Program-made: the position numbers and the translations under genes
Assembly: GCA_008632985.1 (NCBI GenBank)
Contig: QPGO01000133.1
Span: 1 to 64,000 of the forward strand
Direction of reading: 5' to 3'
Length of the DNA stretch: 64,000 nt
Origin: Psammoneis japonica
Lineage: Eukaryota
The notes under the pieces: model-generated
Told to the model about the DNA's origin: nothing
The model's database searches: none
Seen by the model: only the letters and a program-made list of their open reading frames with translations
Shown: piece by piece, positions 9,961 through 64,000 of the stretch
How the letters are laid out: each line of letters starts with the position of its first letter
How positions within the stretch are numbered: the first letter of the stretch is position 1

Positions 9961-9972
9961 GTGCTGTAAGCC

Positions 9973-10015
9973 GCGATCCAACGCGCTTGTCGACCCACGA
10001 CTCAAAATCCGCACG
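9973..10015 (+). promoter_or_regulatory. Upstream motif GCGATCCAACGC..TCGACCCACGACTCAAAATCCGC shared by three loci
   Basis: Near-identical copy at 17106-17146 and a degenerate copy at ~14062-14115, each about 100-150 bp upstream of a gene or pseudogene start. Confidence 0.45.
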
Positions 10016-22227: not shown

Positions 22228-25200
22228 ACACAAGCAATGTGATGGGCCAGTGGTGCTGGCGTTGAGTTCAATCCGTCGAGGCGGATTTGTCGCTGAAGGT
22301 GCAGTGCAGAAATTGTGAGAATGCAGCATCAACATGACGGATTTTTGTGACATGCTATTGCATCTTTGGTGTTGTTTCTCACTTCTTGTCATCATTTTGA
22401 CGCATGTGCCACAAGGTGTCCACGGGGCTTGGGTTTTTATGGTGCTGACTTTCTCTTCGGAACTTGTCGTTGAATGATCAAAATTGAGCTGCCACTGGAA
22501 TTTATGGCAAAGAGTTGGCGGCGGTGATGTCTCAACATCCCTTGGGCCGATTTTCGCGATTCTTGTTTCATCACCAATGGAAATTGTACAAGGAATCCAA
22601 GAGGCTTGGTTTTGTTGTGCAAAATTCCATTCTGTGCAGATGGATTTATTGGGTGCCGTGCGCACAGAAATGATGCTTCAATTGGAAGGGGCGCTCCAGC
22701 GATGTTGTGGATTGAACAAGGAAGAATGAAGCCCCAGACACACACTGCATGTGACAAGAATGTCAAATGTGAATGTCAAACATGGCACGGGGTTTTTTAC
22801 GTCAGTTGATCGTGTCGGGTTGCCTTGATTTGACAGAACATTCCACGGCACCAACCGGTTTGACATGTGGCTGGAAATCGGCTTCCTCCAGTGTTCCAAC
22901 CAATTTGACCTTGCTTGCATGGGCAAGCTGTTGTCGCCTGGTTCGGGCGTTCCATGCGCCTTTAGACCCATCCACCACGACATCGTTGGGGGTTGTTTGA
23001 ATGGCCTCTGGTTGGTGAAGTCTTGTTCACATTGACAAGTCACCCCGCCAAGAAATAACGTGAGTGCTGTCAAGGTTGGCTTGTAATGCTTTTTAGACGG
23101 CATGGTCTCGGTTGTGTTGTTGCACAAATCCATCAAAAACGCGACGCACCATGCAACAACCCGGTTGTTTCGACACGGGAAAAATTCCCGTGCTTCCTCC
23201 ACAAGAACACGGAAGATGCGGTTGCTGAAGTGGGGTAACGGTCAGTGCAATGTGTGGAATTCAACGGAGAAATGCTACGGAATGCAACATGGGTTGTGTT
23301 CCCGGGATAATGTGGAGGTAGACGGAAAGAATGCAACCCTGGGTACAACTGCGCAGGGTCTAGCACTTCTTCTACAGGGTCACCAGGAAAGCACAGACAC
23401 CGACTTCCGCTACATCAACCTGCAGCACCCTCCAAGACGCGCAGCTGCGAAGACAACCAAAAAAGAAAACGATCGCGACAATGGCCTCCCTTGCGTCGCT
23501 GACATCTATGTCTATTTTTGCCGTATTTTCCCGTTTCTTTTCGCAGCATTCGGAGCTTTTATACAAGCAATGTGATGGGCTAGTGGTGCTGGCGTTGAGT
23601 TCAATCCGTCGAGGCGGATTTGTTGCTGAAGGTGCAGTGCAGAAATTGTGAGAATGCAGCATCAACATGACGGATTTTTGTGACATGCTGTTGCATCTTT
23701 GGTGTTGTTTCTCACTTCTTGTCATTGTTTTGACGTATGTGCCACAAGGTGTCCACGGGGCTTGGGTTTTTATGGTGCTGACTTTCTCTTCGGAACTTGT
23801 CGTTGAATGATCAAAATTGAGCTGCCACTGGAATTTATGGCAAAGAGTTGGCGGCGGTGATGTCTCAACATCCCTTGGGCCGATTTTCGCGATTCTTGTT
23901 TCATCACCAATGGAAATTGTACAAGGAATCCAAGAGGCTTGGTTTTGTTGTGCAAAATTCCATTCTGTGCAGATGGATTTGTTGGATGCCGTGCGCACAG
24001 AAATGATGCTTCAATTGGAAGGGGCGCTCCAGCGATGTTGTGGATTGAACAAGGAAGAATGAAGCCCCAGACATGCACTGCATGTGACAAGAATGTTAAA
24101 TGTGAATGTCAAACATGGCACGGGGTTTTTTACGTCAGTTGATCGTGTCGGGTTGCCTTGATTTGACAGAACATTCCACGGCACCAACCGGTTTGACATG
24201 TGGCTGGAAATCGGCTTCCTCCAGTGTTCCAACCAATTTGACCTTGCTTGCATGGGCAAGCTGTTGTCGCCTGGTTCGGGCGTTCCATGCGCCTTTAGAC
24301 CCATCCACCACGACATCGTTGGGGGTTGTTTGAATGGCCTCTGGTTGGTGAAGTCTTGTTCACATTGACAAGTCACCCCGCCAAGAAATGACGTGAGTGC
24401 TGTCAAGGTTGGCTTGCAATGCTTTTTAGACGGCATGGTCTCGGTTGTGTTGTTGCACAAATCTGTCAAAAACGCGACGTACCATGCAACAACCCGGTTG
24501 TTTCGATGCGGGAAAAATTCCCGTGCTTCCTCCACAAGAACACGGAAGATGCGGTCGCTGAAGTGGGGTAACGGTCAGTGCAATGTGTAGAATTCAACGG
24601 AGAAATGCTACGGAATACAACATGGGTTGTATTCCCGGGACAATGTGGAGGTAGACGGAAAGAATGCAACCCTGGGTACAACTGCGTAGGGTCTAGTGCT
24701 TCTTCTACAGGGTCACCAGGAAAGCACAGACACCGACTTCCGCTACATCAACCTGCAGCACCCTCCAAGACGCGCAGCTGCGAAGACAACCAAAAAAGAA
24801 AACGATCGCGACAATGGCCTCCCTTGCGTCGCTGATGTCTACATCTGTTTTTGCCGCAATTTCCTGTTTCTTTTCGCAGCATTCGGAGCTTTTACACAAG
24901 CAATGTGATGGGCCAGTGGTGCTGGCGTTGAGTTCAATCCGTCGAGGCGGATTTGTCGCTGAAGGTGCAGTGCAGAAATTGTGAGAATGCAGCATCAACA
25001 TGACGGATTTTTGTGACATGCTGTTGTGTCTTTGGTGTTGTTTCTCACTTCTTGTCATCATTTTGACGCATGTGCCACAAGGTGTCCACGGGGCTTGGGT
25101 TTTTATGGTGCTGACTTTCTCTTCGGAACTTGTCGTTGAATGATCAAAATTGAGCTGCCACTGGAATTTATGGCAAAGAGTTGGCGGCGGTGATGTCTCA

Positions 25201-28200
25201 ACATCCCTTGGGCCGATTTTCGCGATTCTTGTTTCATCACTGATGGAAATTGTACAAGGAATCCAAGAGGCTTGGTTTTGTTGTGCAAAATTCCATTCTG
25301 TGCAGATGGATTTATTGGATGCCGTGCGCACAGAAATGATGCTTCAATTGGAAGGGGCGCTCCAGCGATGTTGTGGATTGAACAAGGAAGAATGAAGCCC
25401 TGGACACGCACTGCATGTGACAAGAACATTAAATGTGAATGTCAAACATGGCACGGGGTTTTTTACATCAGTTGATCATGTCGGGTTGCCTTGATTTGAC
25501 AGAACATTCCACGGCACCAACCGGTTTGACATGTGGCTGGAAATCGGCTTCCTCCAGTGTTCCAACCAATTTGACCTTGCTTGCATGGGCAAGCTGTTGT
25601 CGCCTGGTTCGGGCATTCCATGCGCCTTTAGACCCATCCACCACGACATCGTTGGGGGTTGTTTGAATGGCCTCTGGTTGGTGAAGTCTTGTTCACATTG
25701 ACAAGTCACCCCGCCAAGAAATGACGTGAGTGCCATCAAGGTTGGCTTGTAGTGCTTTTTAGACGGCATGGTCTCGGTTGCATTGTTGCATAAATCTGTC
25801 AAAAACGCGACGCACCATGCAACAACCCGGTTGTTTCGATGCGGGAAAAATTCCCGTGCTTCCTCCACAAGAACACGGAAGATACGGTCGCTGAAGTGGG
25901 GCAACGGTCAGTACAATGTGTAGAATTCAACGGAGAAATACTACGGAATACAACATGGGTTGTATTCCCGGGATAATGTGGAGGTAGACGGAAAGAATGC
26001 AACCCTGGGTACAACTGCGTAGGGTCTAGTACTTCTTCTACAGGGTCACCAGGAAAGCACAGACACCGACTTCCGCTACATCAACCTGCAGCACCCTCCA
26101 AGACGCGCAGCTGCGAAGACAACCAAAAAAGAAAACGATCGCGACAATGGCCTCCCTTGCGTCGCTGACATCCACATCTATTTTTGCCGTATTTTCCCGT
26201 TTCTTTTCGCAGCATTCGGAGCTTTTATACAAGCAACATGATGGGCTAGTGGTGCTGGCGTTGAGTTCAATCCGTCGAGGCGGATTTGTCGCTGAAGGTG
26301 CAGTGCAGAAATTGTGAGAATGCAGCATCAACATGACGGATTTTTGTGACATGCTATTGCATCTTTGGTGTTGTTTCTCACTTCTTGTCATCATTTTGAC
26401 GCATGTGCCACAAGGTGTCCACGGGGCTTGGGTTTTTATGGTGCTGACTTTCTCTTCGGAACTTGTCGTTGAATGATCAAAATTGAGCTGCCACTGGAAT
26501 TTATGGCAAAGAGTTGGCGGCGGTGATGTCTCAACATCCCTTGGGCCGATTTTCGCGATTCTTGTTTCATCACTGATGGAAATTGTACAAGGAATCCAAG
26601 AGGCTTGGTTTTGTTGTGCAAAATTCCATTCTGTGCAGATGGATTTGTTGGATGCCGTGCACACAGAAATGATGCTTCAATTGGAAGGGGCGCTCCAGCG
26701 ATGTTGTGGATTGAACAAGGAAGAATGAAGCCCCAGACACGCACTGCATGTGACAAGAATGTTAAATGTGAATGTCAAACATGGCACGGGGTTTTTTACG
26801 TCAGTTGATCGTGTCGGGTTGCCTTGATTTGACAGAACATTCCACGGCACCAACCGGTTTGACATGTGGCTGGAAATCGGCTTCCTCCAGTGTTCCAACC
26901 AATTTGACCTTGCTTGCATGGGCAAGCTGTTGTCGCCTGGTTCGGGCGTTCCAAACGCCTTTAGACCCATCCACCACGACATCGTTGGGGGTTGTTTGAA
27001 TGGCCTCTGGTTGGTGAAGTCTTGTTCACATTGACAAGTCACCCCGCCAAGAAATGACGTGAGTGCTGTCAAGGTTGGCTTGCAATGCTTTTTAGACGGC
27101 ATGGTCTCGGTTGTGTTGTTGCACAAATCCATCAAAAACGCGACGTACCATGCAACAACCCGGTTGTTTCGATGCGGGAAAAATTCCCGTGCTTCCTCCA
27201 CAAGAACACGGAAGATGCGGTCGCTGAAGTGGGGCAACGGTCAGTGCAATGTGCAGAATTCAACGGAGAAATGCTACGGGGTGCAACATGGGTTGCATTC
27301 CCGGGATAATGTGGAGGTAGACGGAAAGAATGCAACCCTGGGTACAACTGCGTAGGGTCTAGTGCTTCTTCTACAGGGTCACCAGGAAAGCACAGACACC
27401 GACTTCCGCCACATCAACCTGCAGCACCCTCCAAGACGCGCAGCTGCGAAGACAACCAAAAAAGAAAACGATCGCGACAATGGCCTCCCTTGCGTCGCTG
27501 ATGTCTGTGTCCATTTTTGCCGCATTTTCCCGTTTCTTTTCGCAGCATTCGGAGCTTTCACACAAGCAATGTGATGGGCCAGTGGTGCTGGCGTTGAGTT
27601 CAATCCGTCGAGGCGGATTTGTCGCTGAAGGTGCAGTGCAGAAATTGCGAGAATGCAGCATCAACATGACGGATTTTTGTGACATGCTGTTGCATCTTTG
27701 GTGTTGTTTCTCACTTCTTGTCATCATTTTGACGCATGTGCCACAAGGTGTCCACGGGGCTTGGGTTTTTATGGTGCTGACTTTCTCTTCGGAACTTGTC
27801 GTTGAATGATCAAAATTGAGCTGCCACTGGAATTTATGGCAAAAAGTTGGCGGCGGTGATGTCTCAACATCCCTTGGGCCGATTTTCGCAATTCTTGTTT
27901 CATCACCAATGGAAATTGTACAAGGAATCCAAGAGGCTTGGTTTTGTTGTGCAAAATTCCATTCTGTGCAGATGGATTTATTGGATGCCGTGCGCACAGA
28001 AATGATGCTTCAATTGGAAGGGGCGCTCCAGCGATGTTGTGGATTGAACAAGGAAGAATGAAGCCCCAGACACGCACTGCATGTGACAAGAATGTTAAAT
28101 GTGAATGTCAAACATGGCACGGGGTTTTTTACGTCAGTTGATCGTGTCGGGTTGCCTTGATTTGACAGAACATTCCACGGCACCAACCGGTTTGACATGT

Positions 28201-31200
28201 GGCTGGAAATCGGCTTCCTCCAGTGTTCCAACCAATTTGACCTTGCTTGCATGGGCAAGCTGTTGTTGCCTGGTTCGGGCGTTCCATGCGCCTTTAGACC
28301 CATCCACCACGACATCGTTGGGGGTTGTTTGAATGGCCTCTGGTTGGTGAAGTCTTGTTCACATTGACAAGTCACCCCGCCAAGAAATGACGTGAGTGCT
28401 GTCAAGGTTGGCTTGTGACACTTTTTAGACGGCATGGTCTCGGTTGTGTTGTTGCACAAATCTGTCAAAAACGCGACGTGCCATGCAACAACCCGGTTGT
28501 TTCGACACGGGAAAAATTCCCGTGCTTCCTCCACAAGAACACGGAAGATGCGGTCGCTGAAGTGGGGTGACGGTCAGTGCAATGTGTAGAATTCAAAGGA
28601 GAAATGCTACGGAGTGCAACATGGGTTGTATTCCCGGGATGATGTGGAGGTAGACGGAAAGAATACAACCCTGGGTACAACTGCGCAGGGTCCAGCACTT
28701 CTTCTACAGGGTCACCAGGAAAGCACAGACACCGACTTCCGCTACATCAACCTGCAGCACCCTCCAAGACGCGCAGCTGCGAAGACAACCAAAAAAGAAA
28801 ACGATCGCGACAATGGCCTCCCTTGCGTCGCTGACATCCATGTCTGTTTTTGCCGCATTTTCCCGTTTCTTTTCGCAGCATTCGGAGCTTTTATACAAGC
28901 AATGTGATGGGCTAGTGGTGCTGGCGTTGAGTTCAATCCGTCGAGGCGGATTTGTCGCTGAAGGTGCAGTGCAGAAATTGTGAGAATGCAGCATCAACAT
29001 GACGGATTTTTGTGACATGCTGTTGCATCTTTGGTGTTGTTTCTCACTTCTTGTCATCATTTTGACGCATGTGCCACAAGGTGTCCACGGGGCTTGGGTT
29101 TTTATGGTGCTGACTTTCTCTTCGGAACTTGTCGTTGAATGATCAAAATTGAGCTGCCACTGGAATTTATGGCAAAGAGTTGGCGGCGGTGATGTCTCAA
29201 CATCCCTTGGGCCGATTTTCGCAATTCTTGTTTCATCACCAATGGAAATTGTACAAGGAATCCAAGAGGCTTGGTTTTGTTGTGCAAAATTCCATTCTGT
29301 GCAGATGGATTTGTTGGATGCCGTGCACACAGAAATGATGCTTCAATTGGAAGGGGCGCTCCAGCGATGTTGTGGATTGAACAAGGAAGAATGAAGCCCC
29401 AGACACGCACTGCATGTGACAAGAATGTCAAATGTGAGTGTCAAACATGGCACGGGGTTTTTTACGTCAGTTGATCGTGTTGGGTTGCCTTGATTTGACA
29501 GAACATTCCATGGCACCAACCGGTTTGACATGTGGCTGGAAATCGGCTTCCTCCAGTGTTCCAACCAATTTGACCTTGCTTGCATGGGCAAGCTGTTGTC
29601 GCCTGGTTCGGGCGTTCCACACGCCTTTAGACCCATCCACCACGACATCGTTGGGGGTTGTTTGAATGGCCTCTGGTTGGTGAAGTCTTGTTCACATTGA
29701 CAAGTCACCCCGCCAAGAAATGACGTGAGTGCTGTCAAGGTTGGCTTGCAATGCTTTTTAGACGGCATGGTCTCGGTTGTGTTGTTGCACAAATCTGTCA
29801 AAAACGCGACGCACCATGCAACAACCCGGTTGTTTCGATGCGGGAAAAATTCCCGTGCTTCCTCCACAAGAACACGGAAGATGCGGTCGCTGAAGTGGGG
29901 TAACGGTCAGTGCAATGTGTAGAATTCAACGGAGAAATGCTGCGGAATACAACATGGGTTGTATTCCCGGGACAATGTGGAGGTAGACGGAAAGAATGCA
30001 ACCCTGGGTACAACTGCGTAGGGTCTAGTGCTTCTTCTACAGGGTCACCAGGAAAGCACAGACACCGACTTCCGCTACATCAACCTGCAGCACCCTCCAA
30101 GACGCGCAGCTGCGAAGACAACCAAAAAAGAAAACGATCGCGACAATGGCCTCCCTTGCGTCGCTGATGTCTACATCTGTTTTTGCCGTATTTTCCCGTT
30201 TCTTTTCGCAGCATTCGGAGCTTTTACACAAGCAATGTGATGGGCCAGTGGTGCTGGCGTTGAGTTCAATCCGTCGAGGCGGATTTGTCGCTGAAGGTGC
30301 AGTGCAGAAATTGTGAGAATGCAGCATCAACATGACGGATTTTTGTGACATGCTATTGTGTCTTTGGTGTTGTTTCTCACTTCTTGTCATCATTTTGACG
30401 CATGTGCCACAAGGTGTCCACGGGGCTTGGGTTTTTATGGTGCTGACTTTCTCTTCGGAACTTGTCGTTGAATGATCAAAATTGAGCTGCCACTGGAATT
30501 TATGGCAAAGAGTTGGCGGCGGTGATGTCTCAACATCCCTTGGGCCGATTTTCGCGATTCTTGTTTCATCACCAATGGAAATTGTACAAGGAATCCAAGA
30601 GGCTTGGTTTTGTTGTGCAAAATTCCATTCTGTGCAGATGGATTTATTGGATGCCGTGCGCACAGAAATGATGCTTCAATTGGAAGGGGCGCTCCAGCGA
30701 TGTTGTGGATTGAACAAGGAAGAATGAAGCCCTAGACACGCACTGCATGTGACAAGAATGTTAAATGTGAATGTCAAACATGGCACGGGGTTTTTTACGT
30801 CAGTTGATCATGTCGGGCTGCCTTGATTTGACAGAACATTCCACGGCACCAACCGGTTTGACATGTGGCTGGAAATCGGCTTCCTCCAGTGTTCCAACCA
30901 ATTTGACCTTGCTTGCATGGGCAAGCTGTTGTCGCCTGGTTCGGGCGTTCCATGCGCCTTTAGACCCATCCACCACGACATCGTTGGGGGTTGTTTGAAT
31001 GGCCTCTGGTTGGTGAAGTCTTGTTCACATTGACAAGTCACCCCGCCAAGAAATAACGTGAGTGCTATCAAGGTTTGCTTGTAATACTTTTTAGACGGCA
31101 TGGTCTCGGTTGTATTGTTGCATAAATCTATCAAAAACGCGACGTACCATGCAACAACCCGGTTGTTTCGATACGGGAAAAATTCCCGTGCTTCCTCCAC

Positions 31201-31311
31201 AAGAACACGGAAGATACGGTCGCTGAAGTGGGGTAACGGTCAGTACAATGTGTAGAATTCAACGGAGAAATACTACGGAATACAACATGGGTTGTATTCC
31301 CGGGATAATGT
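22228..31311. repeat. Tandem array of a 1333-bp unit, about 6.8 copies
   Basis: ORF track recurs at exact 1333 spacing (23372, 24705, 26038, 27371, 28704, 30037). Units start at 22228, 23561, etc.; the array ends at 31311. Confidence 0.97.
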
Positions 31312-31421
31312 ACCGGTACTCTATTCTCTATTGTATTGTCTCATCATTAATCACTCATCATTGTTGGTGCTCTTTTTCTTCTGCTGCACTACGTACTACT
31401 GCTATCGATCAAGCTTGTGTC

Positions 31422-32719: not shown

Positions 32720-33109
32720 AGTATGACTGATGCTCTTTTGTACAAACGCAATGCATGCTACGGTGGTGGAATATATGCATGCAGTTAGAGATGCCGATTG
32801 ATGGTCGAGGAGCCGTCAACCAGAAACAGTTTTGTATGAATGCTGTAAAAATCGTTACATTTATGCTAATTGCCACATCAATGTTCCAAACAATGTTGCA
32901 ATGCAAATGCCACAATCTATATATGCGTCGAAACAAAAAATAGTTATCGACTGACCTGTCTTAAACACTAGACCTTGGGAGCATCGACAGCTTGGTCAGC
33001 TCTTCTCAAAAAGACGCCATCATTCCTTTTTCATGAGTCATTGCAATTGTTTTTATCTTCTGACGCTCACATTCAGCCCAATTCAGACAGGTGCAAAGAT
33101 CAAGTCTAT

Positions 33110-39750: not shown

Positions 39751-40314
39751 AATGATTCTTTATACCTCATTTAAGTAATGATATGTTCATTTACTGTGCA
39801 GCCACTGCACATGCTGTACCGTATGACAGACAGCACATCGTCGTCACTGCATGCAGTGATGTGCTAGCTGCAGGGCCCTGCTGTACCGTACCGTACAGTG
39901 CAGCACAGCCGGCACAGAACATTTGATCATGGCGTCCATCATTCCACGCAGCGACAAGAGGCATCACACTCCATGTACAGTGCAGCACCGGCATGCAGAC
40001 TGCTGGCACCACATGGATGGATGGATGTGCCCGCCATGCCCATCCGTCCACCACCCGTCCTTCGCCCGCCGTCCGCACCACAGTCGCTCATCGCCATGGG
40101 ATTTTCCATCACCACATTCTGGTTGACTCACAAATTGATTGCACTGATCATTTCAACATTGTGCACTCTCCATGATGATTTGTGTGCTGTTTTTCTCATG
40201 CTGAACAAAGAAGTTTGTGGGGGAAAGGGCGGGGAGCTCGTCTGGCAAAAGCTCCTGAGCAACAAAAACAAGGAAGAGTGTTGAGAAATTTTCAAACAAC
40301 AATCTCAGAGATGG

Positions 40315-40316
<2 letters not shown>

Positions 40317-40354
<38 letters not shown>
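40317..40354 (+). repeat. (GA)19 microsatellite
   Basis: Directly visible. Confidence 0.95.
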
Positions 40355-40358
<4 letters not shown>

Positions 40359-42358
40359 GAGATGTGACAAGGTGTGACAAGCAATTGATTGATGAGGAAA
40401 TGCACTTTCTTGGGTGTGCGAAAAAACTTGAGTCATTTGGCATTGTCTTTGTGCACACTGTGGGTGCTTGTGGGAGAGACACATGGACAGTCAAGTTGTT
40501 TGTGCCCTGGTTGGCAACTGGCAGGTGCTTGAATTTGAGTGCCTGCACACCTGGGGTGTGCACTCATCTCTGGAGTGCACACTCAACCACCAACCACTGC
40601 CCGTGGTCGCTGGTGGATGACTTGGTTCACCTCAATCTTCATTGCCTTGGCCCGCTCTTCAGCATCTGCTGAACCTTTCACAACACTGTAAAAAGAGAGC
40701 ATGTGCCAGGGTCTTTGTGCTCTCACTCTCATTCATGGCACAGGCTCCAGGCTCCAGGGTCTTTGACAGCCACCACATGCAGCACTTGAGCAACACAAGG
40801 CAGGCTGGCTGCACACATTGTCCAGATGGTGCGCCTGGTCCTCTTCCACTCAGCATGTTTGGCACATCAGAGTTGACCCTCACTTGGTGGACCCTTTGAA
40901 TGCACACTTGGTGAGTGTGCTTTGATCAGAGGAAGAGCTGCAGGTTCAGGAGGTGCTTCAGGGAGCACGACGGGGGCAGGAAATTGTTGTCTTCCCCCTC
41001 ACAGGTGTGACTCAACTCATTGCATCTTGGAGTTGTTGGTTTGCAAGTGGCGCCAAACATTGCAGCTTGAAGCATTGATGAATGTGCACTTCTCTGCTGG
41101 CTGCCTCTCATGCCTTCTGAAGGTGCTCCAGAGGAGTGAGCTGCTCACCTTGCAGGTGCACTGTGTTTGACCCTTCCTTCTGAGTGATGTGTGGGTCAAC
41201 TGCTCAAGATGCGGGAGTTGCTTTAAGTGACCAAGTGGATCCATGAAGCAGCAGCAAAAAGATTGTCAAAAACCACATGATGCCAAGCAGCACAGCAACT
41301 CCAGCTTGAAAATTGAGGACTTGGGTTGGGGGTGCACGCTGGACATCTCCACATGCAAGCATCTCTCTGATGACAGCAAGGCACTGTGCTGGAGCCAGCA
41401 AAAATGTCTGCTTGGCAACATCTGAGGGAGTTGGAAGTGACGTTGCAGACGTGCTTGCTGGCAAAAGAGGTGCCCCCCTCCCCCCCTTTCAACAGAGTGA
41501 TGCATGAATGAGCACTGCTCTCCTCATGTTGGAGATGGGCCAAATGTTCTGCATTTGACAAGAACTCCACTCTGATGATGGGCATTGGCAGCACCACAAA
41601 ACCCATGTTGTGGCTCGTGCTCATGGGCATGCTGAACAAATGAGGTGGCTTTGAATGCACTGCCATTGGCAAGAAACTTTTGAGCAGCCACACCATGGTG
41701 CAGAGCATGCTTTTCAAATGCCTGCTTTGCTCACACATGGTCTCTACAACTGAAAACTCAAGTTTGCACTCAACCTGAACACACCCTGAGGTGTGGTTGA
41801 CAAGTGCCTGGCCTTCCTTAAATTGCTTGGATGTGCAGCTTTCCCATTGGAGTTGCAGGTCTCCAGCCCAGGAGACAAGATTCAAAATGATCAATGCTGA
41901 AAGCTTGGCACATTTGCAAATCTCTTGTTGATCTCAGAGAGATTGCTTGACTGAGTCAGCAGCCTCCTCTGAGAGTGATGATGTTGTGGCACAAAATGGC
42001 GCATGCTGGCATTCTTCTGGCCATCTGCCAATGCAGGTGCCACAAGTCTGGCAGATTTTGCCTTGAACAGGAGCCATCAGCAATGGCTGGCTCTTCAGTT
42101 TTGTGGACTTGAGTCCTTGACAATGCATGGTCACACTCAAAAACCATGATTTGGCCAGCATCGTTTCCCCTCCCTCATCATTCCCATCTGCCCCAACTCC
42201 AAAAATGTTCAATGTTGGTTTCGAGGTTTTGTGCATTGGCAGTTCACAGCGTTCAATGAAACGACAGTGAGCTGTGATGCCAATGATTGGAAAAGCAGTC
42301 CTGCGCGCAATCCTTGGTTGTGGTGGTCCACAATTCAGAGTCTGTTTTGTTGAAGTCT

Positions 42359-43140
42359 TCATCTGGGCCAATCAAGGTTTTGACAACTGCAGCGGCATTT
42401 GTTGCTGCTGTTGCTGTTGTTGCTGCTGCTGGATGACACTCCAACAGCCACTCCTGCAACCACAGTGGCAACAACCAGCAATGATGCAGCCCCCAAGAGA
42501 ACAAAGCAATTGCAATGACGACACTTTGCTGCCACATGGTGGTCATCATGTTCTGCTGGAATCTCGTCCTTGTCTTCAACCTGCTCTGCTTGGGCCACCG
42601 GAAGTTGACAAAAGCACAAGTTTTCTTCATGCAGCCATGCCATTCTCTTGTCATCATCTTGAGTGAGTTGAGCCTGGACAAGCACAGTGCTGCCGTTGTC
42701 ATCACCATCACCACCAAGGCTTTCACTGCTGGTTGGAAGAGTGATGGGATGATCCAAGGTTGTCACAGTGGCGACTCTGTCATGTCCAATGCCGGGTTCT
42801 GCCACTGGTCTCATGGCAGGTTGACCTCCAGGTCTCCAGGCAAATGCACCAGGCAAGACAAATGCAGGTGGGGAGTCAACGCCAGTGGCATTGACATCGG
42901 TTGCATCACCTGGCAATGACAAGATGCTGTTCACAGAAGCCACATTGGCCGCCTTCTGTCACTTGCCCTTTTTGGTTTGAGTGCTTGTCCCATGATTTTG
43001 GTTGCTGCTGGAAGCCACAAATCCATCCACTTGTTGTTGTTGTTGTTGCTCTTGCTCATGGTGATGTCCAGATTGAGGCTTTTTCTTTGTGTTGACACTG
43101 CTTGTAGATGGTCAATCTTTGCCGTCGTCTGGGCATGGCT
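42359..43140 (-). pseudogene. Hypermutated relic of a PGAFA/TM-type receptor-like host gene
   Basis: PGAFAW...VLVQAQL...VAQAEQV...hydrophobic LLVVATVVAGVAVGVSS has the same architecture as the N-terminus of the gene at 54065. Tyr-free and TA-free. Confidence 0.55.
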
Positions 43141-46100
43141 TTCTTGTTGAGGTCTTTGTTTTGGAGCAATGAGTTGTCCTTTTTGTCCTGTTTGTTGTTG
43201 CACGTCACACTGCACTGCCGCAGCACTCTCAAAGACAGTGTTCACTGCTCTGCTTGCTGCTTCTCTCCAGAGCAGCAGCAGAGGATTGTGATGAGTGCAA
43301 CAAGGGACACTGGCAGGAAACAACACAAAATGAATGTTCCCTTTGCAATCAGCATGATCGATCTGCACATTTCGCACATCACACAGAATGCACAGATTTT
43401 GCTGCATTGCATCCGATTCATCGAAATGCAGTAAACACAAGTTGGGTAGAATCCCAAAAAATGACATCTTCAACTTGAAGTTCATTCAGTCATGAGTTGT
43501 GTTGTCATTGTGTTTTTTGTGATGGTCTTGTCAACCGTTTTCACCCAAACTTGTTCATCTCATTGAGCAAAAATTCAAATGTGAAATTGCACCACAAAAG
43601 AGAAGACTGTGATTTTTGTGTGTTTGGCCAGACCATCTCATCAATGACTGCAGCTGCGAGCTGTCATGTGCCACTGTTGCTGTTTCCCAAAAGACCAGCA
43701 TGTCAAGCAGAGACATGTTGTTGAGTGGTGTGGCAGCTTGTTCCCTCACCAACCCACAAGCATTGGCCAGAGCTGCTGGCAACAGACAACAAAGCATGCA
43801 GGGCTGCTCTGCCAGATTTGGTGGACCACCCCAGCAAGGCTTTCCACATCTCATGCTGGGGCAACGCGGCCTCTTCTCACCTGTGCCAGGTGTGTGTCTG
43901 CCACCCCAAACTGAACGAAGCTGTTGTTTTCAACTCAACTTGGGTGTTGTCAATGTGCTCAAGCCCAAGGCACCCAAGATGGGAGGAGCAGCCCTCACCA
44001 GGTCTGCTGAGCTGGTGGCTTGGACAGGCAGCAAGCTCAGGGAAGGCTTGCCTTGTGCAGATCCTGCTGCTGTGACTTCTCTGATGTCTCTGAGCCAGCA
44101 CCATTCACATCATGTTGTTAGACCAACAAGTTGATGCAATGAAAAGAGAGTCCCACAAGGCTTCCAGTTCTGTTTGCTGCACTTGTCCTTGCAGCTGGTT
44201 GGCTTTGGGCCACCTGAAAGTTCTCAATGGTGACTTCAAATTTGCAATGCATGCAGGCACCCAACAGCACCAACAGACAGGTGCACATTCCAGATGATTC
44301 ACTCCAAAGAGTGAGGTTGAAACACAGTTGAGAGAGGGATTGGTTGCTGAGGAAAACCCTCAAAAAACAGTTGCTGATGCACTGCGTCAGGGTCCAAAAA
44401 CATTTTTCCTTCAATGCACCTAGGTTTTCACAGCAACCCTTGTGTCCAGGAGCTCCAGCACATGCTGTGTCCACTGCTCAGAAGAGCAAGGCCCACTGCA
44501 CCACTGGACTTCTTTCAAAGCACGTGAAAAAGGGAAACCCAGCTGTTTGCTTTTGAGAAAGGCATCATGGGCCACCTGGAGGGCTGTGTTTTGGACATGA
44601 TGACTCTTGTCTTTTGGATCCAGAAGGCCCTTCCGAGACAATGACTCACATCAAAAGCCATCAGATTTGAACCAATGCCCAAGCCAATGTGTGCAAATGC
44701 ACAGTGCCAACAAAACAAAAGAAGATGCATGGGCTGACCTGTCTCAGGCACTTGATCTTGTTCAAGTCAGCAGCTTGATTGCTTCTCTTTTCAAAGATGC
44801 TTCACACTCATTGCTCACATGAGTTGTTGCAGCTGTTTTAATCTTCCAGCCTTCACATTCAATCCAAAACACAAAACCAAAAATCTGTTTTTAAGGTGCT
44901 GTTACACTCCCGCCCTGCAACTCTGGCAACAAGCCAACCCACACCCCCAGCACACCTGCGCGCGGCAGGGATGCATGTCAATCAGCAGATGATGCCCAGC
45001 CAAAGCAACGGACGACGTCGAGACAACAACACTTAAAAGGTTTCTTGTTTTCATTGAGAAAGGAGCCATGGTGGCCACAAAACAACAGCAAAAGACAATG
45101 ACAGTCAGAAGAACTTGGCTCAGAAATGGCAGCGCACCTTGAAGAAAGCACGGGAACTTCAAACCCTTGAGCGCAGCTGCCACAGTGCAAAGTGCACAGT
45201 TTGGAACAGTGATCTTGAATTGCCGGTAGACAGCAGCAGAAGGATGGTCACTGGGAACTGGCAGACAGGGGGATGGATGACTTGGGAACTTGACAGGGTG
45301 ACAGCTGGCAACAGCAACTTCCGACGTAGAAAAACCCCACACTCAATCTGGGGCAGAACATTTGCTTCCGTGACGGGCATGTGCCATCAACACAGACAGA
45401 CTTGATTTCATGCTTTGTGGGACTGGAACGAGAGCAGAAAGTTCACCACTCAAAGGAGGCAGCTTGGCATGTCGGCAATTAGAAGGAAGGTCATTCTAGA
45501 CTTGCAGGCATGGAAGGGTAGATCTCAATGTTGTGACGCATCGGAAAACAGCAGCAATTTCTGACACACATAGAAACAACACTGGGTTCTGCACAGAAGT
45601 GCCGATGTGTGCAGCGGGTGGACAAAAAATCAAGTGACTCCAAGGGACAGCTCAATCTCATGCTCAAAAGTGCATCAACAGAAACATTTCTTTCTCTCAC
45701 AAAGGAAAGACTGTGACTGGCCAATGGGAAGAAGAGGGGTTGCTGAGAACAGGCGGGTGTGGGTGTGAACAGTTCGGAGATTTGAAAAGTCGATCGTCAG
45801 TGTCAACTGCTGAAGCGCGCAGAATTTGCACTGGATCCTGTGTAGAAAAATTTCTGAATCGGCAAAAAATCACCAGGAAAGACAAACAGCTTACGACCCA
45901 CAAGGCGTTGATGCCAGTTGTTTTCCACTGAGAAACATCATTGCTTGTCATGCTGAAATGAGGGCATGCCATTGGTGGATGTTTCCGAAAGGAGCGTGTG
46001 AGACCAAGCAACACACCATGTGAGAAGGGAGGCATCTGCACCAGAGCATGCACAGAAATGCACGCAGGTGGTTTCAAAGGGAGTGATGCTGAAATTGTGG

Positions 46101-47023
46101 CCTTCACATTCAATCCAGCTCAGCAGGTGGCCAGGGTGCAAAGATCAAGAAACTTGAATTCAAAATGTTTTTGTGTGTGTGAAAATGGGTGCGTGTGCAC
46201 CGCCCAAGTCTGGAACAAGCTCAAGTCATGAGTTGCAGCTCCCTCTGGCGGCAGCAACAATGGGGGAGGCACTGGGGAGGTGCGCCAATGACAGCAGCAC
46301 CCACCATGACAAGTTGCTTTCTGCTGCACCAACCATGGCTTGATTGGTGCAAGTGAGAATTTTTGCAGCACATTTGTTTTGCTCTTTGCCAACAAACACC
46401 TGGGTGCTCCAACCCATTGCTGCACAGCGGTTGCCCCACCACTGCCCTGGAACAGATGTCAGCTGATTTTCTCTTTCTCTCACTTCCAGTGGTCCAGTCA
46501 TGTCATGCAATGCCTGAAAAGTTTTGCAGGCAATGAGCACTTTTTTCTGCTGGGAGAGGCACTGCCAGCTTTCAAGCCACAGCTTTTGCAGCAATGCTGG
46601 CTGCGCGCTGTTGTCAAGCCACCTCTGACAAATGAGTCCAGGAGCAAAGATGCTGCTTGGAGTGCAAGAGGAGCTGACAACCTTTTCTTCATGTGGCTTT
46701 CTGCCACCACAGAGCAGCATTTGCTTGGTGGGGAAGGCCATGGCCAATGGCTGAAGCAGCCTGGATGGGCAGGTGTGCTGAAAGCCTTGAGCCCCAAACC
46801 CAAGCTGCATGGATGGGCCAGAGAGCGGGCAAGGTGGGAGCTGTCAAACCATCTGAAGTCAGCTGTTGTTGTTTTTCTCTTGTGAAAAATGAGAGAGCCA
46901 ACAACAACGGTCAACTCGAACATTGGATGGCACTTTAATGGTTCAAACAAATTCTTGCAATGGTCGGAGCATGCAGTCACAACGCGCGAGGCAGGATCCG
47001 CGAATGAATGCTCCAGGACACTG

Positions 47024-56770: not shown

Positions 56771-57859
56771 CTAGAGTAGATTACTATTTAGCGAAAGAGT
56801 GAAGAGCGAACATGGAAAGGCCGCAAAGCATCCCGGCGTCAATTTGCTTCGTGTGGATCGTACTGTTTCAAGTTCCTGCTCCCTATGTATCTTTGCCATG
56901 AGCTTCAAATCACTGTGATCCAAGCTTCCGTTCCCCGTCACATCTAACCTATCAAACTGTTCATGCAACTCTTGCAACTGCTTTGGCTCCACCAATTGCA
57001 ATTCAACCAACATAAATTCCACATACTCGTCCTTGGTGACAGTACCATCCCCATTGGAATCCATTTTATTCAAATAGTCCATCGTCAGTGCTCCCGCCGT
57101 GCTACGTTGTGCCTCCAACAATCGACTTCGACGTTGTTGCAACGAAAAGGATGCAATATAACTCAGTACTTGTCCCACCGTGGCAACCGCCATGGGTATA
57201 TACAAGAGTGCAAACAAACGTCCCCGGCGTGTCGACGGAGAAAAATCACCATAACCAATCGTCCCTGACGTAATAATGGAATAGTAAATGGAGTCGATCC
57301 AAGACCACTTTTCCAAATGACCCATATAGAGACCGCCCATGAACAGAACCGAAATGGGTGGAACCAGCGTTTTGGCAATGTTGCGAATCTGAGAAAATCG
57401 AGACGAAATAGTCGGTTTTGTACTACTTGTTGCCTTCGTTTTCTTGGCACTTGCTTCCATTATACCAGCAGTCTCATTATTATGATTGCTTGCGTATTTG
57501 GTATGATTCACGAGATGATTCATTTTGTCAAACAAATCAACGATACGTTTCCGACTACGGTCTTGTGCAGCCTCCATGGCGTGTACTTCGGATTGCAACA
57601 AGTCACTTCCAATTCTCGCCAGAGCCGTTCCCAGAAAGCTAATGCCACCCAAACCAAAGAGACACGTAAATATCTTGGCTTTGGTTGACAATGGACTCGC
57701 CAAATCGCCATATCCCACCGTGGTGAAGGTTGTGACACTAAAATACAAGGCATCCAGACAGGACCAGTGGGATTCCAGCAAGACCGAATACGCCACTACG
57801 CCCACTAGCAGATACAACACAATTCCCAAGAGTGCATCTCGAGCTGTTGTCATGGGCAT
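56771..57859 (-). CDS. Two-pore-domain K+ channel with EF-hands (TPK/KCO-like)
   Basis: Two pore loops TTVGYGD and GTIGYGD, 4 TM segments, EF-hands DSNGDGTVTKDEY and DVTGNGSLDHSDL. Start chosen at ATG 57859. Confidence 0.92.
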   Translation of the reverse strand: MPMTTARDALLGIVLYLLVGVVAYSVLLESHWSCLDALYFSVTTFTTVGYGDLASPLSTKAKIFTCLFGLGGISFLGTALARIGSDLLQSEVHAMEAAQDRSRKRIVDLFDKMNHLVNHTKYASNHNNETAGIMEASAKKTKATSSTKPTISSRFSQIRNIAKTLVPPISVLFMGGLYMGHLEKWSWIDSIYYSIITSGTIGYGDFSPSTRRGRLFALLYIPMAVATVGQVLSYIASFSLQQRRSRLLEAQRSTAGALTMDYLNKMDSNGDGTVTKDEYVEFMLVELQLVEPKQLQELHEQFDRLDVTGNGSLDHSDLKLMAKIHREQELETVRSTRSKLTPGCFAAFPCSLFTLSLNSNLL

Positions 57860-58010
57860 GGCTGGTGTTGTATCATCGGTATTGTTGTGACTGATTTTTG
57901 TAAAGATCCGTTTTGCGGCAGGAAAGTAGGGCAGCGAAATGCCCCTCCACAAGTTTCGAAGAAATCGTGATGAAAGACGTGAATCTTTTTTCTTGGCGAG
58001 TCACTATTCC

Positions 58011-58367
58011 TGTTTGAAGCATAGAGCAGTGTAAAGGTTGAGCGCTCCTGAATACTGCTTATGCTGTGACCTTGATGCAATGAGTTGCTGTTGATGATGA
58101 TTCGTCTTTTTGATGAGCAAGTCGTGTGAAATGCCATCAACGGTGCGATAACTCTCGTCTGAGAGTCAGGGGAAGTCGACTGAGGTCGAATAATAGATGT
58201 ATCGCTGGCGAAGAGGGCCAACGATAACGGTATGATTGGTAAAGCTGCTAATGTCTTGTTACACTAGATGTTGTAATTGTGAGAAAAGTTGAAAAAGACC
58301 GATGGCGGGAAATCGCATACGTAAGTGAGCGCGCGCGTATCGCGCATGAGTTCGTACTGTGTTGACA
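58011..58367 (-). repeat. Putative 3' LTR of copia element 2
   Basis: Starts TGT directly after the PPT. The distal end (TCAAACA at 58011) is inferred, since the partner LTR is not in the window. Confidence 0.55.
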
Positions 58368-59840
58368 CTCCCTCTCGAACGAAGAAGCATGCCAACCGCA
58401 AAGCAACTTTCGAATAGCCTCGAATTTAACCGTAACGATACCTTTAGTCAGAACATCAGCGCGTTGCAAATCTGTTGCGATCTTGGACACAGTAACTCGA
58501 TTTGGTTTGAGCTGTGAACGGAACCAATGACATTTGATTGCGCAGTGCTTGGACCTTGGCGTCACTCGGCCAGGTTCCACATTGGCTGGAGTCAAAGCCC
58601 CAGCATTGTCCTCCCACACAGCAGTGCGAACAGTTTTGGTGGTCCCCAGACCAACTCCAATGCCTTGAGAGATGGCTTGTGCAGTGTGCAGAAAGGGAAG
58701 GACAGTTTTCATGCAAGTGGAAAGAGCGCTGCACTCTGCTTCCATTGTTGACAGAGCAATTTCAGGTGCAAGCTTGCTGGGCCAAATGACAGGACAGTTG
58801 GAAACGCAAATGACAAATCCTGTTCGGCTTTTGACACAAGCCGGGTCATGCTTGTCTTCGTGTGGCCACAGTCCAGCAAAATCTGAGTCAACAAACACGT
58901 CAATGTTGAAGTCCCCAGATGGCTTGAGGATTGAGCCTTCATCCAGAGCACCCTTCAGGTGTCGACCCATCCGTTCAAGGGCCAGTTCATGCGAGCGACG
59001 AGGGCCATGAACAAATCTGGCTGCTGAGCTAACGGCGCAGGCAATGTCTGGCCTGGAATGGCCTTGAAGACATTGGAGCATGCCAACCACACTGGCATGA
59101 TCACAGGCTCCATTTGGTGGGTCTCCATCGGTGTCCTTGACCAACGGAGCAGCTGGTGTGGGCGTTCGGGCCTTTGGCAGATGGCCCACGTTAAGGGCTT
59201 CGACGACACGTTTGGATGGACCGCTCTGAGTGAGCTTGACAGTGCCATTGTCGGTGTCGCGTTCGATGTGGACCCCCAAAAAACCTGCGACGGAATCTTC
59301 AACTTCGATGGCCAGACCGCCATCAATTTTGAGTTTGTCGATCACTTCGTCAATGTGCTCTTGTTTTGGAGAGAAGAACAATGTGTCATCAACATGAACG
59401 AGGCAGATGACTTTATCGGACACAAATGGACACGGATCAACATCGTCTTGCGATTGAAATCCGGCATCTTCAAGTTTTGACTTGAGGTGCAGGAAAAAGT
59501 TACGAGGTCCTTGCTTGAGACCACACACGGTCCGTTTGAGTTTCAGCACTTTGCCGGGCTTGGTGTGTCCGCGAGGCATCTGCACGAAGACACCAGAGCG
59601 TTCTCGCTCTTCGGGCGTCATGGTGTCCCATTTGGGATCCTTGTCAATCGGAGCATGGACGAAAGCGGTGACACAATCAACTTGTTTCGTCGAAAGTTCC
59701 AAAATTTGAGAAAGTGTGAGCACAAGCCATGCGGTCGTCCAATTGACAATTGGAGCAAAGGTGTCAAAGCAGTCGACACCTTCCAATTGCTTGTCTCCAC
59801 GGACGCAAAAGCGGGCTTTACATTTGCGGATCGACCCATC

Positions 59841-60151
59841 AGGGTGTCGTTTGCACTTGAAGGCCCAAGTGGATGGCAAGACGTTCATCCAATCTTGGCG
59901 GTCTACTTCTTCCCAGGCGTCTTTGCCTTTGACTAGAGAATCGATTTCGACGTCGCAAGCTTTCAGACAAGCTGCTCAATCAGGACCATTCATTGAAGGG
60001 TGTCGTTTGCACTTGAAGGCCCAAGTGGATGGTAAGACGTTCATCCAATCTTGGCGGTCCACTTCTTCCCAGGCGTCTTTGCCTTTGACTGGAGAATCGA
60101 TTTCGACGTCGCAAGCTTTCAGACAAGCTGCTCAATCAGGACCATTCATTG
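59841..60151. repeat. 156-bp-period tandem duplication inside pol of copia element 2
   Basis: 59841-59995 vs 59997-60151, 3 mismatches. Confidence 0.95.
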
Positions 60152-63100
60152 CTTCTTCCCAAGTTGGATTGTCGGCGGAATTTGCATTTGCTGCGAGGGC
60201 AAGAGGGTGCATTTCTTCGAGTGTTCCGTGAACTTGATCGGTGTTTTTGTTGAAAAGGTCAAGCATTGCGCGCAAATCTTTAGACCGGAGTGCATTTGTG
60301 AGGCTGTCCCAACGCAAGGCCATCAAGAACTGTTTGTTCAGTGTTTCCGACTTGACAGCACGTTTGGGATTCTTGTGGGCATTCGGCAACTCGGTGGGCG
60401 GAGTGCGGATGTCGGCATGCATGGCTTCGATCAAGCGTTCCGGCTTCTTGACGGAACGACCGCTTCGAGTCCGAGCAGGTGTTGTGGCAGCATTCGGAGC
60501 AGGTTGAGGTTGCTCAGCTTCGGCAGGACCCAGGTCGAGGTCTTCAGGTGAGTCGTGATGATTGACAAGCGACAATTCGTCGTCGCTGTCATCACTGAAC
60601 TCATCGATCTTGACTCCCTCTGGAGCCTCTGAAGTTGCAGATTCTAGATCGTCAGCGGATGATTCAGGCAATGCAGGGTGCGCTCCCTCTGGAGCTGTGA
60701 CGGAAGAGGTTGAAGGAGGGACGGCGGGAGGGGCCGTTTTGGAGTTTGAAGACGACGTTGATGGCGGTCGTGTCGATGATTAGCGCGATGACGGCGCTCT
60801 GCGGGTGTCAACCAATCATCGTGTAAAGCCGGCAAGCGACGGCGAGGGTCATCGGCTGTGTCGGAAGGCTCAGGCGGAGCATTGTGTGCCAGCGAGTCGG
60901 CGGTGAGGAGGGATTCCCAAAGGTCGGCAGTGAAGGGAATGTCCTGGAAGAAACTGCCAGAGTCGCTGTTGGGCACTGTTGCAAAGTGGTTGTCGTAGAC
61001 CACGTGATGCTGAGGACTGACATGGCCCGTCGAGAGATTCAAAATGAGGCCGATGTTGGTTGAATGATCCGGTGAGACACCGAGATGTTGGCCACGGCGA
61101 CTCCTGGGGTCCCACTCAGGCAGTTTCTTTCCGTCTTGTAACTTGGGATCAAGAACACATGTGGGGGCAACCCCGTGCTTGTAAGCGCTGCAGGTGCGCA
61201 CAGGTGTCGAAGCGTTGCTTGGAAAAAATCTCGACCGGCGCGGCAAGAGTGTCAGACTTTGGGATGTGGTTCCACAAGTGGGGTCGCGTGGGTCATGGCA
61301 AAAGGCCACAACTCAAGGTTGGCGGCATCAGGCCACATGAGAATGGCGTGCAGCAGCATGGCTCGTGCCCATGAAGTGATGGTTTGGATGGAGCGCTCGG
61401 CCACGCCGTTCTGATGATGAGCGCCAACACCAGAAAAATCAACAGTCTGGTTGTTTTCTTCGAGGTCGTCCATGAAAGCCTTGGTGCCAAACGGGACGTT
61501 GTCAGCAAGGTGGGACTTGATGCGGACCCCAAATTGGTCACTAAGCTGCTCGAAGGACAGCTTGGCACGAACAGCTTCACCTGCGGCGAGACCAACTTGA
61601 TGGGTCAGATGGACATGGGCAGAAGCATGATCAACAAAAATCGTGCCTCCACAATGCTTGTCTTTCTTGGGTTCGCGTCCCTTGGACGTCGGAAGACGGC
61701 CAGGGACATGGCTGATGTGCTGATCAACGGAGACGCGTTGACCAGGCGCCAAATCTCCCTGTCGCAAAGTCAACGGCGGATGACCAGAGGTGCCGCGACG
61801 GTCAGGTGTTCATCGTTTCTGCTTTGCGAGTTGACAGGCAGCACACAAAGGTGCAGTGCAGCTGGAGACGGCTTGTGTTGAAGGCTTGACAATGTGGGAT
61901 TTGGTGGGATCCCGTGGTGTTGCACACAAGCGTTGAATGTGTTGGAAGCCGGCATGACCAAGTTTCTGATGGAGCAAAAGAAGCTCCTTCTGGCCGGGTG
62001 TTAGATTCTGATTGGTCTGAGAAGCAACTGAAAGAAACGAAGCAAGGCGTGCTTCGGTGCTGACGGGAGCCAAATTGCATTGTGTGACTCCGGCTGAGAT
62101 TGGTTCGGACATCATCACAAAAGGTAAGTTGTTTTCTTTGTTGTGCGGGAACTCGAGCGCATCCCCTTTCGGAAGAGTGAGGGTTGCTTTGTTTCCTCGT
62201 ACGTGACATTCACCTTGGTTTCCATTCTCTTGAAAACAGGCTTGAGGGCTGAAGAGTCGAATGGAAGCGTCGGGAACACAGTGGGCTCGCGTTCGGACGG
62301 TCCGGATTACATTCCAACAATCGATTGCGTCCCATTCCACGAAACCTTGACCAACTGCTCGGGTGCTGGAGGACAATCCGTTGATGGCAGTGGCACCAAT
62401 GGGTTCTAGCGGTCCTGCAAAGTCACCCAAGTGGGGTGTGAGCGACGAAGATGCTCCTGTGTCAAGAACAACAGGTGCGTCGACAGGTGGGCACGATGTC
62501 AATGCTTGACATTGGCGGCCTTCGAGATCTCTTGTGTCATTGAAGGATTTGATGTGCTGCGTTGGATCATCGGTCAACCATGGTGGGTCCGGCTTGGATG
62601 CAGCGACGTGAGATGGACCTGTCGTGGTCTGGTGAGAGAACATGGCTGCTCCACCGAAACCACTCGTAAAGGTTGCTGTTGTCGTGCGTGACAGGTTGGT
62701 TGCGATGCAAGAGAGCGTCGGCGCTTGACCACAAGCTCGCAACATTTCGGAAGAGGCAAGTGTCTTGATCAAATGGAGCTGTTCTAAAGGATCAATGCCT
62801 TGAACAAATTCGTCTAACGAACAACCGCACTGCATGTCGCACATGATCCAGGTTTGGTGTAACAGTCGGTGCTTGATGCGGTAGAACTCTTCTAGTTCGA
62901 AAGCTTCAGGGTCGTCTGGAGGTGCAAAAGGTGAGGGCTCCGTTCGTGTCGCGGAGCTACGAGGTTTGGTCCTCAGGTGGTCACCTGGAGGATCAAGCAA
63001 AGTGACGAAATCAGTTAAAGTCGCACCATGAGGAAACTCGTACATCTCGGAAGGTAGATGCAACAGGCGATGTTTGATTTGAGAATGGGCTTCTGCGGCC

Positions 63101-64000
63101 TCTTGTTGAGGATCGACGCAGGCAAATCTGGGTGGTCTCGTTTTCCCAGGTTTGAATCGACATCTCGATCTTGAGAGTTTCCACGACTTGGATTTTCGAC
63201 AGGAGCGATCCGGATCGGCTGCCGTTGTGTTGTCCGGAACAGGAGTTCGGCGCTGTTTGCGCCAAGTCGTTGGATGAAGGAAGGACCACAAGGGGTCTCT
63301 GCGTGGGATTCGAACTGGGTGCCGATCCAAGTGGCGAACCTGAGAATGATGTGTGATCCGAGTTCGATCAGGAGGACGACGAAATGAGGTCGGTTCGACA
63401 GCAGGAACAACAGCAAAGTCGGGAAGATCGTCGTGTGAAAGCGAAGGATTCTTGGAAAAGAGAAGCAAGCAGAACAAACATCCACCTGCTAAAACAAACA
63501 GCAACTGACAAATCGACGAAACTGCTTCGATCCCTCCCTCTCCAAGAATCTGGAGAGTGAACCACAGGAGCAAAAAATGACCAACCGACAAATGAGCCTG
63601 GACATCCCTTCCAGGAGCGGACGGTTGGTTGAAAAGGCAAGAAGAGAGGGCCACACGCTCAGGAGAGGAGGCGTGCCCGAAGCTTCAGGTGAAGGAGGCG
63701 AAGAGGCCGGACACAGTTTCGACCATCTCCTTCTTGGCATTGGCAATGGCGAGGTCACGATCTGTGACGGGAGCGGAAGCCGGTGCCGGAGCGGGCGCAG
63801 CGGCCGGAGCGGGAGAAGGTGCAGCGGCAGGAGTGGAGGCAACGTTCCCCGTCTCAGTCACCGGGTGCCAGCGCTTGGTTTTGCAATGATGGCAATGATC
63901 CTTGCCATCAATGTTGCGGCGACTGTCATCACTCTTTTCGGCTTCAGTCGGTGGCTGCCATTTCTTGGGAATGGTCTTGGCAGAGGGACCGGAAGAGGAG

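Follow-up and report, generated by a model that had tools for sequence, protein, structure and literature searches.

The window under study, i.e. the stretch of 64,000 nucleotides that opens contig C134 (QPGO01000133.1) of the diatom Psammoneis japonica, ends inside a minus-strand LTR retrotransposon that continues beyond it (Table 1). This element is a Ty1/copia retrotransposon, as it displays TG...CA LTRs, a 5-bp target-site duplication (TSD), and an RVT_2 domain located downstream of a GAG-pre-integrase/integrase region. On the minus strand upstream of RVT_2, the gag_pre-integrs match has an E-value of 7.9e-6 and 26 bits, under the cut-off of 28.4, and no Pfam match to the integrase core was obtained in the element. 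Among the 120 relatives of the reverse transcriptase (RT) in the matches listed, three carry organism names, which are Nitzschia inconspicua and Seminavis robusta. The part of the element interior that falls inside the window retains 38 TA in 5,633 bp, and the paralogous locus found about 38 kb away is an empty insertion site.

The neighboring K+ channel/EF-hand gene, along with an LRR-like gene located upstream, belongs to a segmental duplication (56838-58139 and C134:95,400-96,700), whose distant copy is not TpA-eroded. Besides, contigs from one of the public sequencing runs (X1) skip 120, 150, and 293 bases at 58183-58304, 63285-63436, and 63573-63867, respectively, probably reflecting deletions in other copies of the family.

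Table 1. Features of the window and of the adjoining part of contig C134 (strand "." where none applies).
Feature	Position	Strand	Remarks
Tandem array, seven copies of 1,333 bp	22230..31313	.	Independent witness of TpA loss; no sign of retro-origin
Two-pore K+ channel/EF-hand gene	56771..58000	-	Next to the element; no TpA erosion, although a paralog of 92.7% identity lies at 38 kb
Target-site duplication AACGG	58139..58143	+	5 bp; second copy at contig 65879-65883, beyond the other LTR
Ty1/copia LTR retrotransposon	58144..64000, on to contig position 65878 (C134:58144-65878)	-	7,735 bp
3' LTR	58144..58367	-	224 bp, TG...CA; 15 TA remain
RT-RNase H region (RVT_2)	58392..59975	-	RVT_2 E-value 9.6e-22; 0 Tyr in 528 aa
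Left unit of the duplication	59841..59995	.	155 bp; TA -> CA at 59877-59878; TA intact at 59904 and 59934
Premature TGA from CpG decay	59976..59978 (left unit), 60132-60134 (right unit)	-	Common to both units
Junction base A	59996..59996	.	May be an insertion, an error of the consensus, or an artefact of the join
Right unit of the duplication	59997..60151	.	155 bp; TA intact at 60033; now CA at 60060 and TG at 60090-60091
5' LTR	contig 65655-65878	-	11 TA remain; four differences from the 3' LTR, all TA -> CA/TG

Structure and polarity of the duplicated segment

Where the RT region begins in this element, Tandem Repeats Finder detects 59841-60151 as a tandem repeat with a period of 156 and 98% matches. 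Direct comparison of the two 155-bp units reveals exactly three mismatches, GGCAAG/GGTAAG (site 1, 59877/60033), GTCTAC/GTCCAC (site 2, 59904/60060), and ACTAGA/ACTGGA (site 3, 59935/60091), in agreement with the repeat and the three TA versus CA/TG differences of the original prediction. No TA is common to both units, all the TpA of either unit being these three sites. The statement that the copies differ only at TpA holds for the three internal mismatches but not for the junction base at 59996, which was outside the comparison made at that time: this A constitutes a fourth, non-TpA difference at the 156-bp period, the bases flanking the duplication being both C.

Of the 155 unit positions, 27 are such that a random transition pairs TA with CA or TG, and the unpolarised chance of observing a TpA-type change at all three mismatches is 0.005, or 0.018 for three out of four when the junction base is included. 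If only losses at the three witnessed TA sites are counted, these values become 6e-5 (3/3) and 2e-4 (3/4). Taken alone, the three-site pattern is suggestive, not strong, evidence for TpA targeting.

A search of the genome with the sequence returned 38 matches, and 16 paralog loci were examined. None of these 16 loci has an adjacent second unit, the duplication thus being private to the window copy, and the pattern around the junction at 59996 occurs only once genome-wide. TA is present at site 1 in the paralogous copies C22 and C95, at site 2 in C95, where C22 displays the opposite change, TG, and at site 3 in C22. The comparison with other family members that had been asked for therefore supplies an ancestral TA at all three sites, from C22 and/or C95, and confirms that one TA was lost in the left unit and two in the right one. 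At 60090-60091, the TG replaces Leu with Pro in a column occupied by Leu in 35 of 40 relatives and by a gap in the other five.

In the protein, not one of the 528 residues of the RT-RNase H region is Tyr, compared to a median share of 2.9% in the 120 relatives among the matches listed. Over 14 conserved Tyr columns (those in which 60% or more of 40 relatives have Tyr), the window copy possesses eight Cys, four His, and two Phe, and in the intact relatives Cys or His is found in three of the 560 cells of these columns. The replacement of Tyr by Cys or His in the element, together with the TA found in the paralogs, indicates that TA is the earlier state. In addition, the observed/expected ratio (o/e) of TpA is 0.12 in pol, versus a median of 0.595 in 78 related metagenome loci; the latter were retrieved using the alignment as query, the metagenome scan with the eroded protein as query having given no relative. 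A reversed polarity, with RIP-like gains of TpA from CpA, or mere chance in a TA-poor sequence could be invoked, given that only three sites are involved and that the unpolarised probabilities are those mentioned above. However, this explanation is contradicted by the polarity of the Tyr replacements, by the depletion of TpA in pol, and by the opposite outcomes, CA and TG, reached at a single site, and its likelihood is next to nil.

Origin of the duplication and order of events

As judged from the sequence, the duplication is probably a real one in the cell. The public data consist of three runs from one sample, all of them in the form of contigs. Among the pieces listed from the sample runs (16 of 597), no contig piece or joint addresses position 59996, and the longest pieces on the element reach about 220 bp. 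One piece from a run crosses the left flank junction of the element without a difference, meaning that this run carries the insertion. The copy C22 has a 116-bp tandem duplication of its own (G000:C22:538046-538277), whose units differ at two TpA and three CpG sites. Its junction was found in contigs from an independent run at a depth of 62, versus 66 for single-copy pieces, showing that such duplications are real in this copia family.

Alternatively, the assembler could have joined two alleles of one insertion plus one spacer base, in which case the three differences would be allelic TpA hits, made in DNA after integration. The otherwise unexplained single junction base and the lack of a spanning piece among those listed (16/597) would fit such a join, as would the duplicated contigs of the assembly (C237/C113 and C215/C148 give identical matches) and the private 1-bp indels of the window copy. 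Four such indels (58389, 60744, 61163, and 61280), three of them in homopolymers, are found in the window copy and not in C22, C95, and C65, and the contigs of run X1 carry the other length at private 1-bp indels. These indels are probably consensus errors of the assembly, and 1-bp frameshifts were excluded from the evidence of element death because of this possibility. The sibling duplication of C22, confirmed by an independent run, argues against an allelic join, and no second contig with the same insertion and flank was found, so that this alternative appears unlikely. Moreover, it would leave the inference of a DNA-level process intact, because once integrated the alleles of a single insertion diverge as well. 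The original prediction had regarded any artefact joining two alleles or paralogs as fatal, which is too strong as regards alleles: only a join of paralogs would refute it.

Such a join, in which the units come from two paralogs assembled together, or brought together by template switching of the RT between RNAs, and their differences predate the duplication, is very unlikely. The right unit does resemble C95 by its TG at site 3, and both C22 and C95 by its TA at site 1, and a parent copy could be missing from the 23 candidates scored. Against this, the units are identical outside the three TA sites, the sequences to the left and to the right of the junction are both closest to C22 (0.35-0.54% transversions), the two ends of the element carry matching TSDs, and the two units share a stop-making CA that is absent from C22, C95, C65, C237, and C113.

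This CA, at positions 137-138 of both units, corresponds to a TGA stop on the coding strand. The paralogs have CG (C22, C95, and C65) or TG (C237 and C113) at this site, and only two distant ones among 14 paralogs possess the stop-making CA. Its presence in both units and its absence from the five closest paralogs imply that the stop predates the duplication and that the units derive from an already broken copy, which supports the original claim that the element was dead by then. As to the claim that mutation continued after the duplication, TpA loss did occur after it, whereas the argument for a loss before it comes from two Tyr-derived sites in the same state in both units, a concordance expected by chance one time out of four. 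From the sequence of the two units, an earlier onset of TpA loss is plausible.

The following order of events may thus be proposed for a real duplication. An intact, TpA-rich copia copy first integrated, as shown by its TSD and LTRs, and would then have turned into CG-methylated silent chromatin, in view of its CpG decay and of the biology of DNMT5 in Phaeodactylum. CpG decay created the stop in pol, after which the 155-bp stretch was probably duplicated in place; if not, the assembler merged the two alleles of this one insertion. A later host process converted A:T to G:C at TpA on either strand, hitting three of the six TpA site-copies of the two units according to their polarity. As its pattern shows, this process acts on chromosomal DNA over whole repeat domains with sharp edges, and not on homologous pairs.

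TpA loss at the level of DNA and of chromosomal domains

The reading favored here, with a probability of roughly 0.88, is that of a targeted hypermutation of TpA on both strands, operating at the DNA level after integration. Six pairs of sequences that were identical at birth, i.e. the LTR pairs of four copies, the window duplication, and the 116-bp duplication of C22 (junction base and gaps left out), differ at 40 of 67 TpA, 12 of 94 CpG, and 4 of 845 other positions; a TpA changed identically in the two sequences of a pair is invisible to this comparison. The LTR pair and the duplication of the window together have 7 TpA hits and no hit at 27 CpG sites. Between the window copy and C22, 7,572 aligned bases include 79 CA/TG doubles, 47 TA versus CA/TG differences, 103 CpG-type differences, and 75 others; at the 79 doubles, the other copies give TA as the earlier state at six, CG at one, and neither at 71.

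The TpA hits are evenly distributed between the strands, with A+ versus A- counts of 80:78 in the window copy and of 75:80 and 79:79 in two more copies, and they affect 158 of the 202 TA-type sites of the window copy, about 78%. Clustering by strand direction is mild in C22 (z = -2.2) and absent in the other two copies. A TA preceded by A or followed by T seldom survives. At conserved Tyr codons, same and opposite changes stand at 72:64 over 10 copy pairs, which are not independent of each other, indicating that each copy was hit separately after leaving a TpA-rich parent. The TpA specificity is not absolute. In a substitution table polarised with singletons, of which only the AA, GA, and CpG rows were used since the TA rows are biased, most copies being already hit, AA>AG changes (10/1,681, about 0.6%) slightly outnumber GA>GG changes (3/1,721, p = 0.054), the reverse change having the same excess. 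A few AA changes are also seen in the 1,333-bp array.

RNA editing of the element transcript by an ADAR-like activity with a UA preference, or errors of the reverse transcriptase, could in principle leave a comparable scar: the element moves through RNA, and two A_deamin genes are present in the genome. Yet editing predicts hits on one strand only, against the 80:78 observed. Furthermore, the LTRs, identical at integration, now differ at TpA, the copies have independent states, and a tandem array is hit too, making such an origin highly improbable. The original preference for in situ mutation of DNA over RNA editing or RT error is accordingly upheld by the LTR pair, the strand balance, the independent hits, and this non-retro array. 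In the latter, 41 of the 50 TA-type sites vary, 22 of them with both CA and TG, as do 13 CpG sites and 14 other columns, and the states over the 50 TA-type sites amount to 102 TG, 78 CA, and 156 TA.

The array also shows where the process stops. In the last 260 bp of unit 7, all 20 TA are intact, versus 37 of 120 in units 1-6, and the edge of this unhit part, near 31,050, is sharp and adjoins a gene. In the same line, 13 of the 14 TA are hit in one LTR of C22 and none in its twin, and C95 is hit mostly in the LTR opposite to that of C22. Both LTRs of the window element, with 15 and 11 TA intact, adjoin TA-rich flanks. Between the K+ channel gene and its 92.7% identical paralog, 45 shared TA are intact and 14 of the 74 mismatches are TA-type. 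In the parts of the window that were identified, the TpA hits are confined to foreign or mobile DNA, and genes are spared. From the position of the hits along the sequence, the targeting looks positional, by domain, rather than dependent on homology as in RIP. With regard to what marks these domains, the available part of one source describes CG methylation of transposons by DNMT5 in Phaeodactylum (PMC9998398), and CG methylation may be linked to TpA loss.

Over the window as a whole, the TA o/e is below 0.25 in 31 of 64 one-kb bins, which are identified in part only, and about 0.5-0.7 in gene bins. Older blocks (5001-7000, 8001-10000, 13001-17000, 33001-35000, and 40001-47000) combine a TpA o/e mostly at or below 0.13 with strong CpG loss, the two losses both ending in CA/TG. 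Outside the eroded blocks, 38752-38925 is an 87-bp tandem duplication whose mismatches are not TpA losses.

Candidate chemistry and related systems

The simplest and most likely chemistry, to which even odds are given, is that a TadA/ADAT2-type enzyme would be recruited to silent chromatin and deaminate the A of 5'-TA-3' to inosine, which replication reads as G. The effect of the process is the removal of Tyr codons, of TAA/TAG stops, and of TATA-like signals, mobile DNA being permanently disabled. The ability of this enzyme type to act in such a way is illustrated by evolved TadA enzymes, for which the accessible part of one source describes genome-wide A-to-G and T-to-C changes with a TA preference (PMC13225742). 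A genome search for two deaminase families gave nine PF00383 matches and four PF02137 matches, the latter in two genes. The inventory comprises a TadA-like gene on C38, a gene on C26 labeled ADAT2-like from its motif and a weak TadA match, two A_deamin genes, and metabolic deaminases for the rest. By their sequences, these deaminases resemble the usual enzymes of tRNA editing and metabolism, and none stands out. At G000:C79:87,300-88,800 (L064), a single reading frame holds a CDA-fold deaminase and a 2OG-Fe(II) dioxygenase, whereas the two A_deamin genes are separate ones (C40/C79, L069-L072).

Another chemistry with the same targeting could consist either of polymerase eta-type WA repair of the T:G mismatches left by 5mC deamination, or of a modified T or A that miscodes at TpA. 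CpG decay does go along with TpA loss, there is a weak excess of AA>AG, and WA is a known A:T hotspot of somatic hypermutation according to the part of the source available (PMC6423074). Nevertheless, TpA loss lies far above CpG loss, as in the 7 TpA versus 0 CpG hits of the window LTRs and duplication. In addition, the share of hit sites is more than 100 times higher for TA-type sites (about 78%) than for AA sites (about 0.6%), while polymerase eta, whose TA:AA gap is few-fold, predicts many AA hits. Error-prone repair or a modified base is rather doubtful as the chemistry, and about as much weight is left to routes of yet another kind.

The same scar is found in copia RT sequences of other organisms. 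One of the 120 homologous proteins among the matches listed (P0024) lacks Tyr altogether over 555 aa and displays Cys or His at 13 of the 14 Tyr columns, its best match in the present genome being 63% identical. This protein also displays several Asp-to-Gly changes, and the A>G context may be wider in its case. Similarly, one of the 78 metagenome loci (L097) has a TpA o/e of 0.13, versus the median of 0.595, and at most 67% identity to this genome over long stretches. The scar of TpA and Tyr loss is therefore not a quirk of this genome. It is tentatively proposed that diatoms, and probably several other microbial eukaryotes, possess an undescribed defence enzyme system deaminating adenine at TpA in the DNA of silent chromatin.

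If true, this would be a natural chromatin-targeted adenine base editor, acting on A:T as a mirror image of RIP, and either common to diatoms and Bigelowiella or convergent between them. In the literature searched, the process is known so far from one preprint on a rhizarian alga, and the case of the diatom retrotransposon represents a second supergroup. As diatoms allow gene knockouts, the enzyme becomes findable, and a natural DNA adenine deaminase would be of interest to base-editor work. Small duplications and LTR pairs serve as internal clocks, by which methylation decay, duplication, and TpA loss can be placed in sequence. Finally, erased TAA/TAG stops lead to longer reading frames in dead elements, and LTR-based dating is badly inflated in such genomes.

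Several known systems can be compared. The likeness to the CoDi-type Ty1/copia elements of diatoms concerns element structure and RT family, and this level only. The RIP of fungi prefers CpA, is premeiotic, and depends on RID/DIM-2. As described in the accessible part of one source, RIP in Neurospora is, like the present process, a dinucleotide-specific transition hypermutation of repeats that affects both strands and disables transposons (PMC7296669), but it proceeds from C:G to T:A, the direction here being A:T to G:C. Besides, RIP follows duplication itself, unlike here, where one LTR is erased beside its intact twin and a 92.7% identical gene pair is untouched. The process is thus RIP-like in its logic, and differs from RIP in two of its defining traits, direction and duplication trigger. 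The CpG decay fits with the DNMT5-methylated transposons of diatoms, as far as the available text describes them (PMC9998398), and CG methylation does not explain the TpA loss. The evolved TadA editors share A-to-G changes with a TA preference, but they are, in the part of the source at hand, laboratory enzymes (PMC13225742).

The closest counterpart is Bigelowiella natans, in which the available portions of a preprint describe TpA-only A:T to G:C hypermutation of integrated NCLDV/virophage DNA (Mettrop et al., 10.64898/2026.01.13.699255). De novo TpA mutation was measured there in a single-copy region, about 1000-fold over background and with only some lines active, the TpA-poor coding sequences include RT and DDE domains, and an ADAT2-type deaminase is proposed by the authors (10.64898/2026.01.13.699255). 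GC-biased gene conversion was also considered and rejected, as it cannot give both CA and TG from TA and as the B. natans region is single-copy. The words "diatom" and "stramenopile" do not occur in the text of the preprint (10.64898/2026.01.13.699255), and no report of TpA hypermutation in diatoms was found in the literature searched, whose coverage excludes subscription journals. Going by the accessible parts of the preprint, the two cases share A:T to G:C changes at TpA only, on both strands of nuclear DNA, in foreign or mobile regions. Unlike the rhizarian B. natans, the host here is a stramenopile, the process strikes LTR retrotransposons and a tandem array, and the loss is near saturation (o/e of about 0.1 or less, versus 0.45 in B. 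natans), with CpG decay and sharp edges. With the window duplication, a process that is real but little known is seen in a new lineage, in a single small case whose events can be well ordered.
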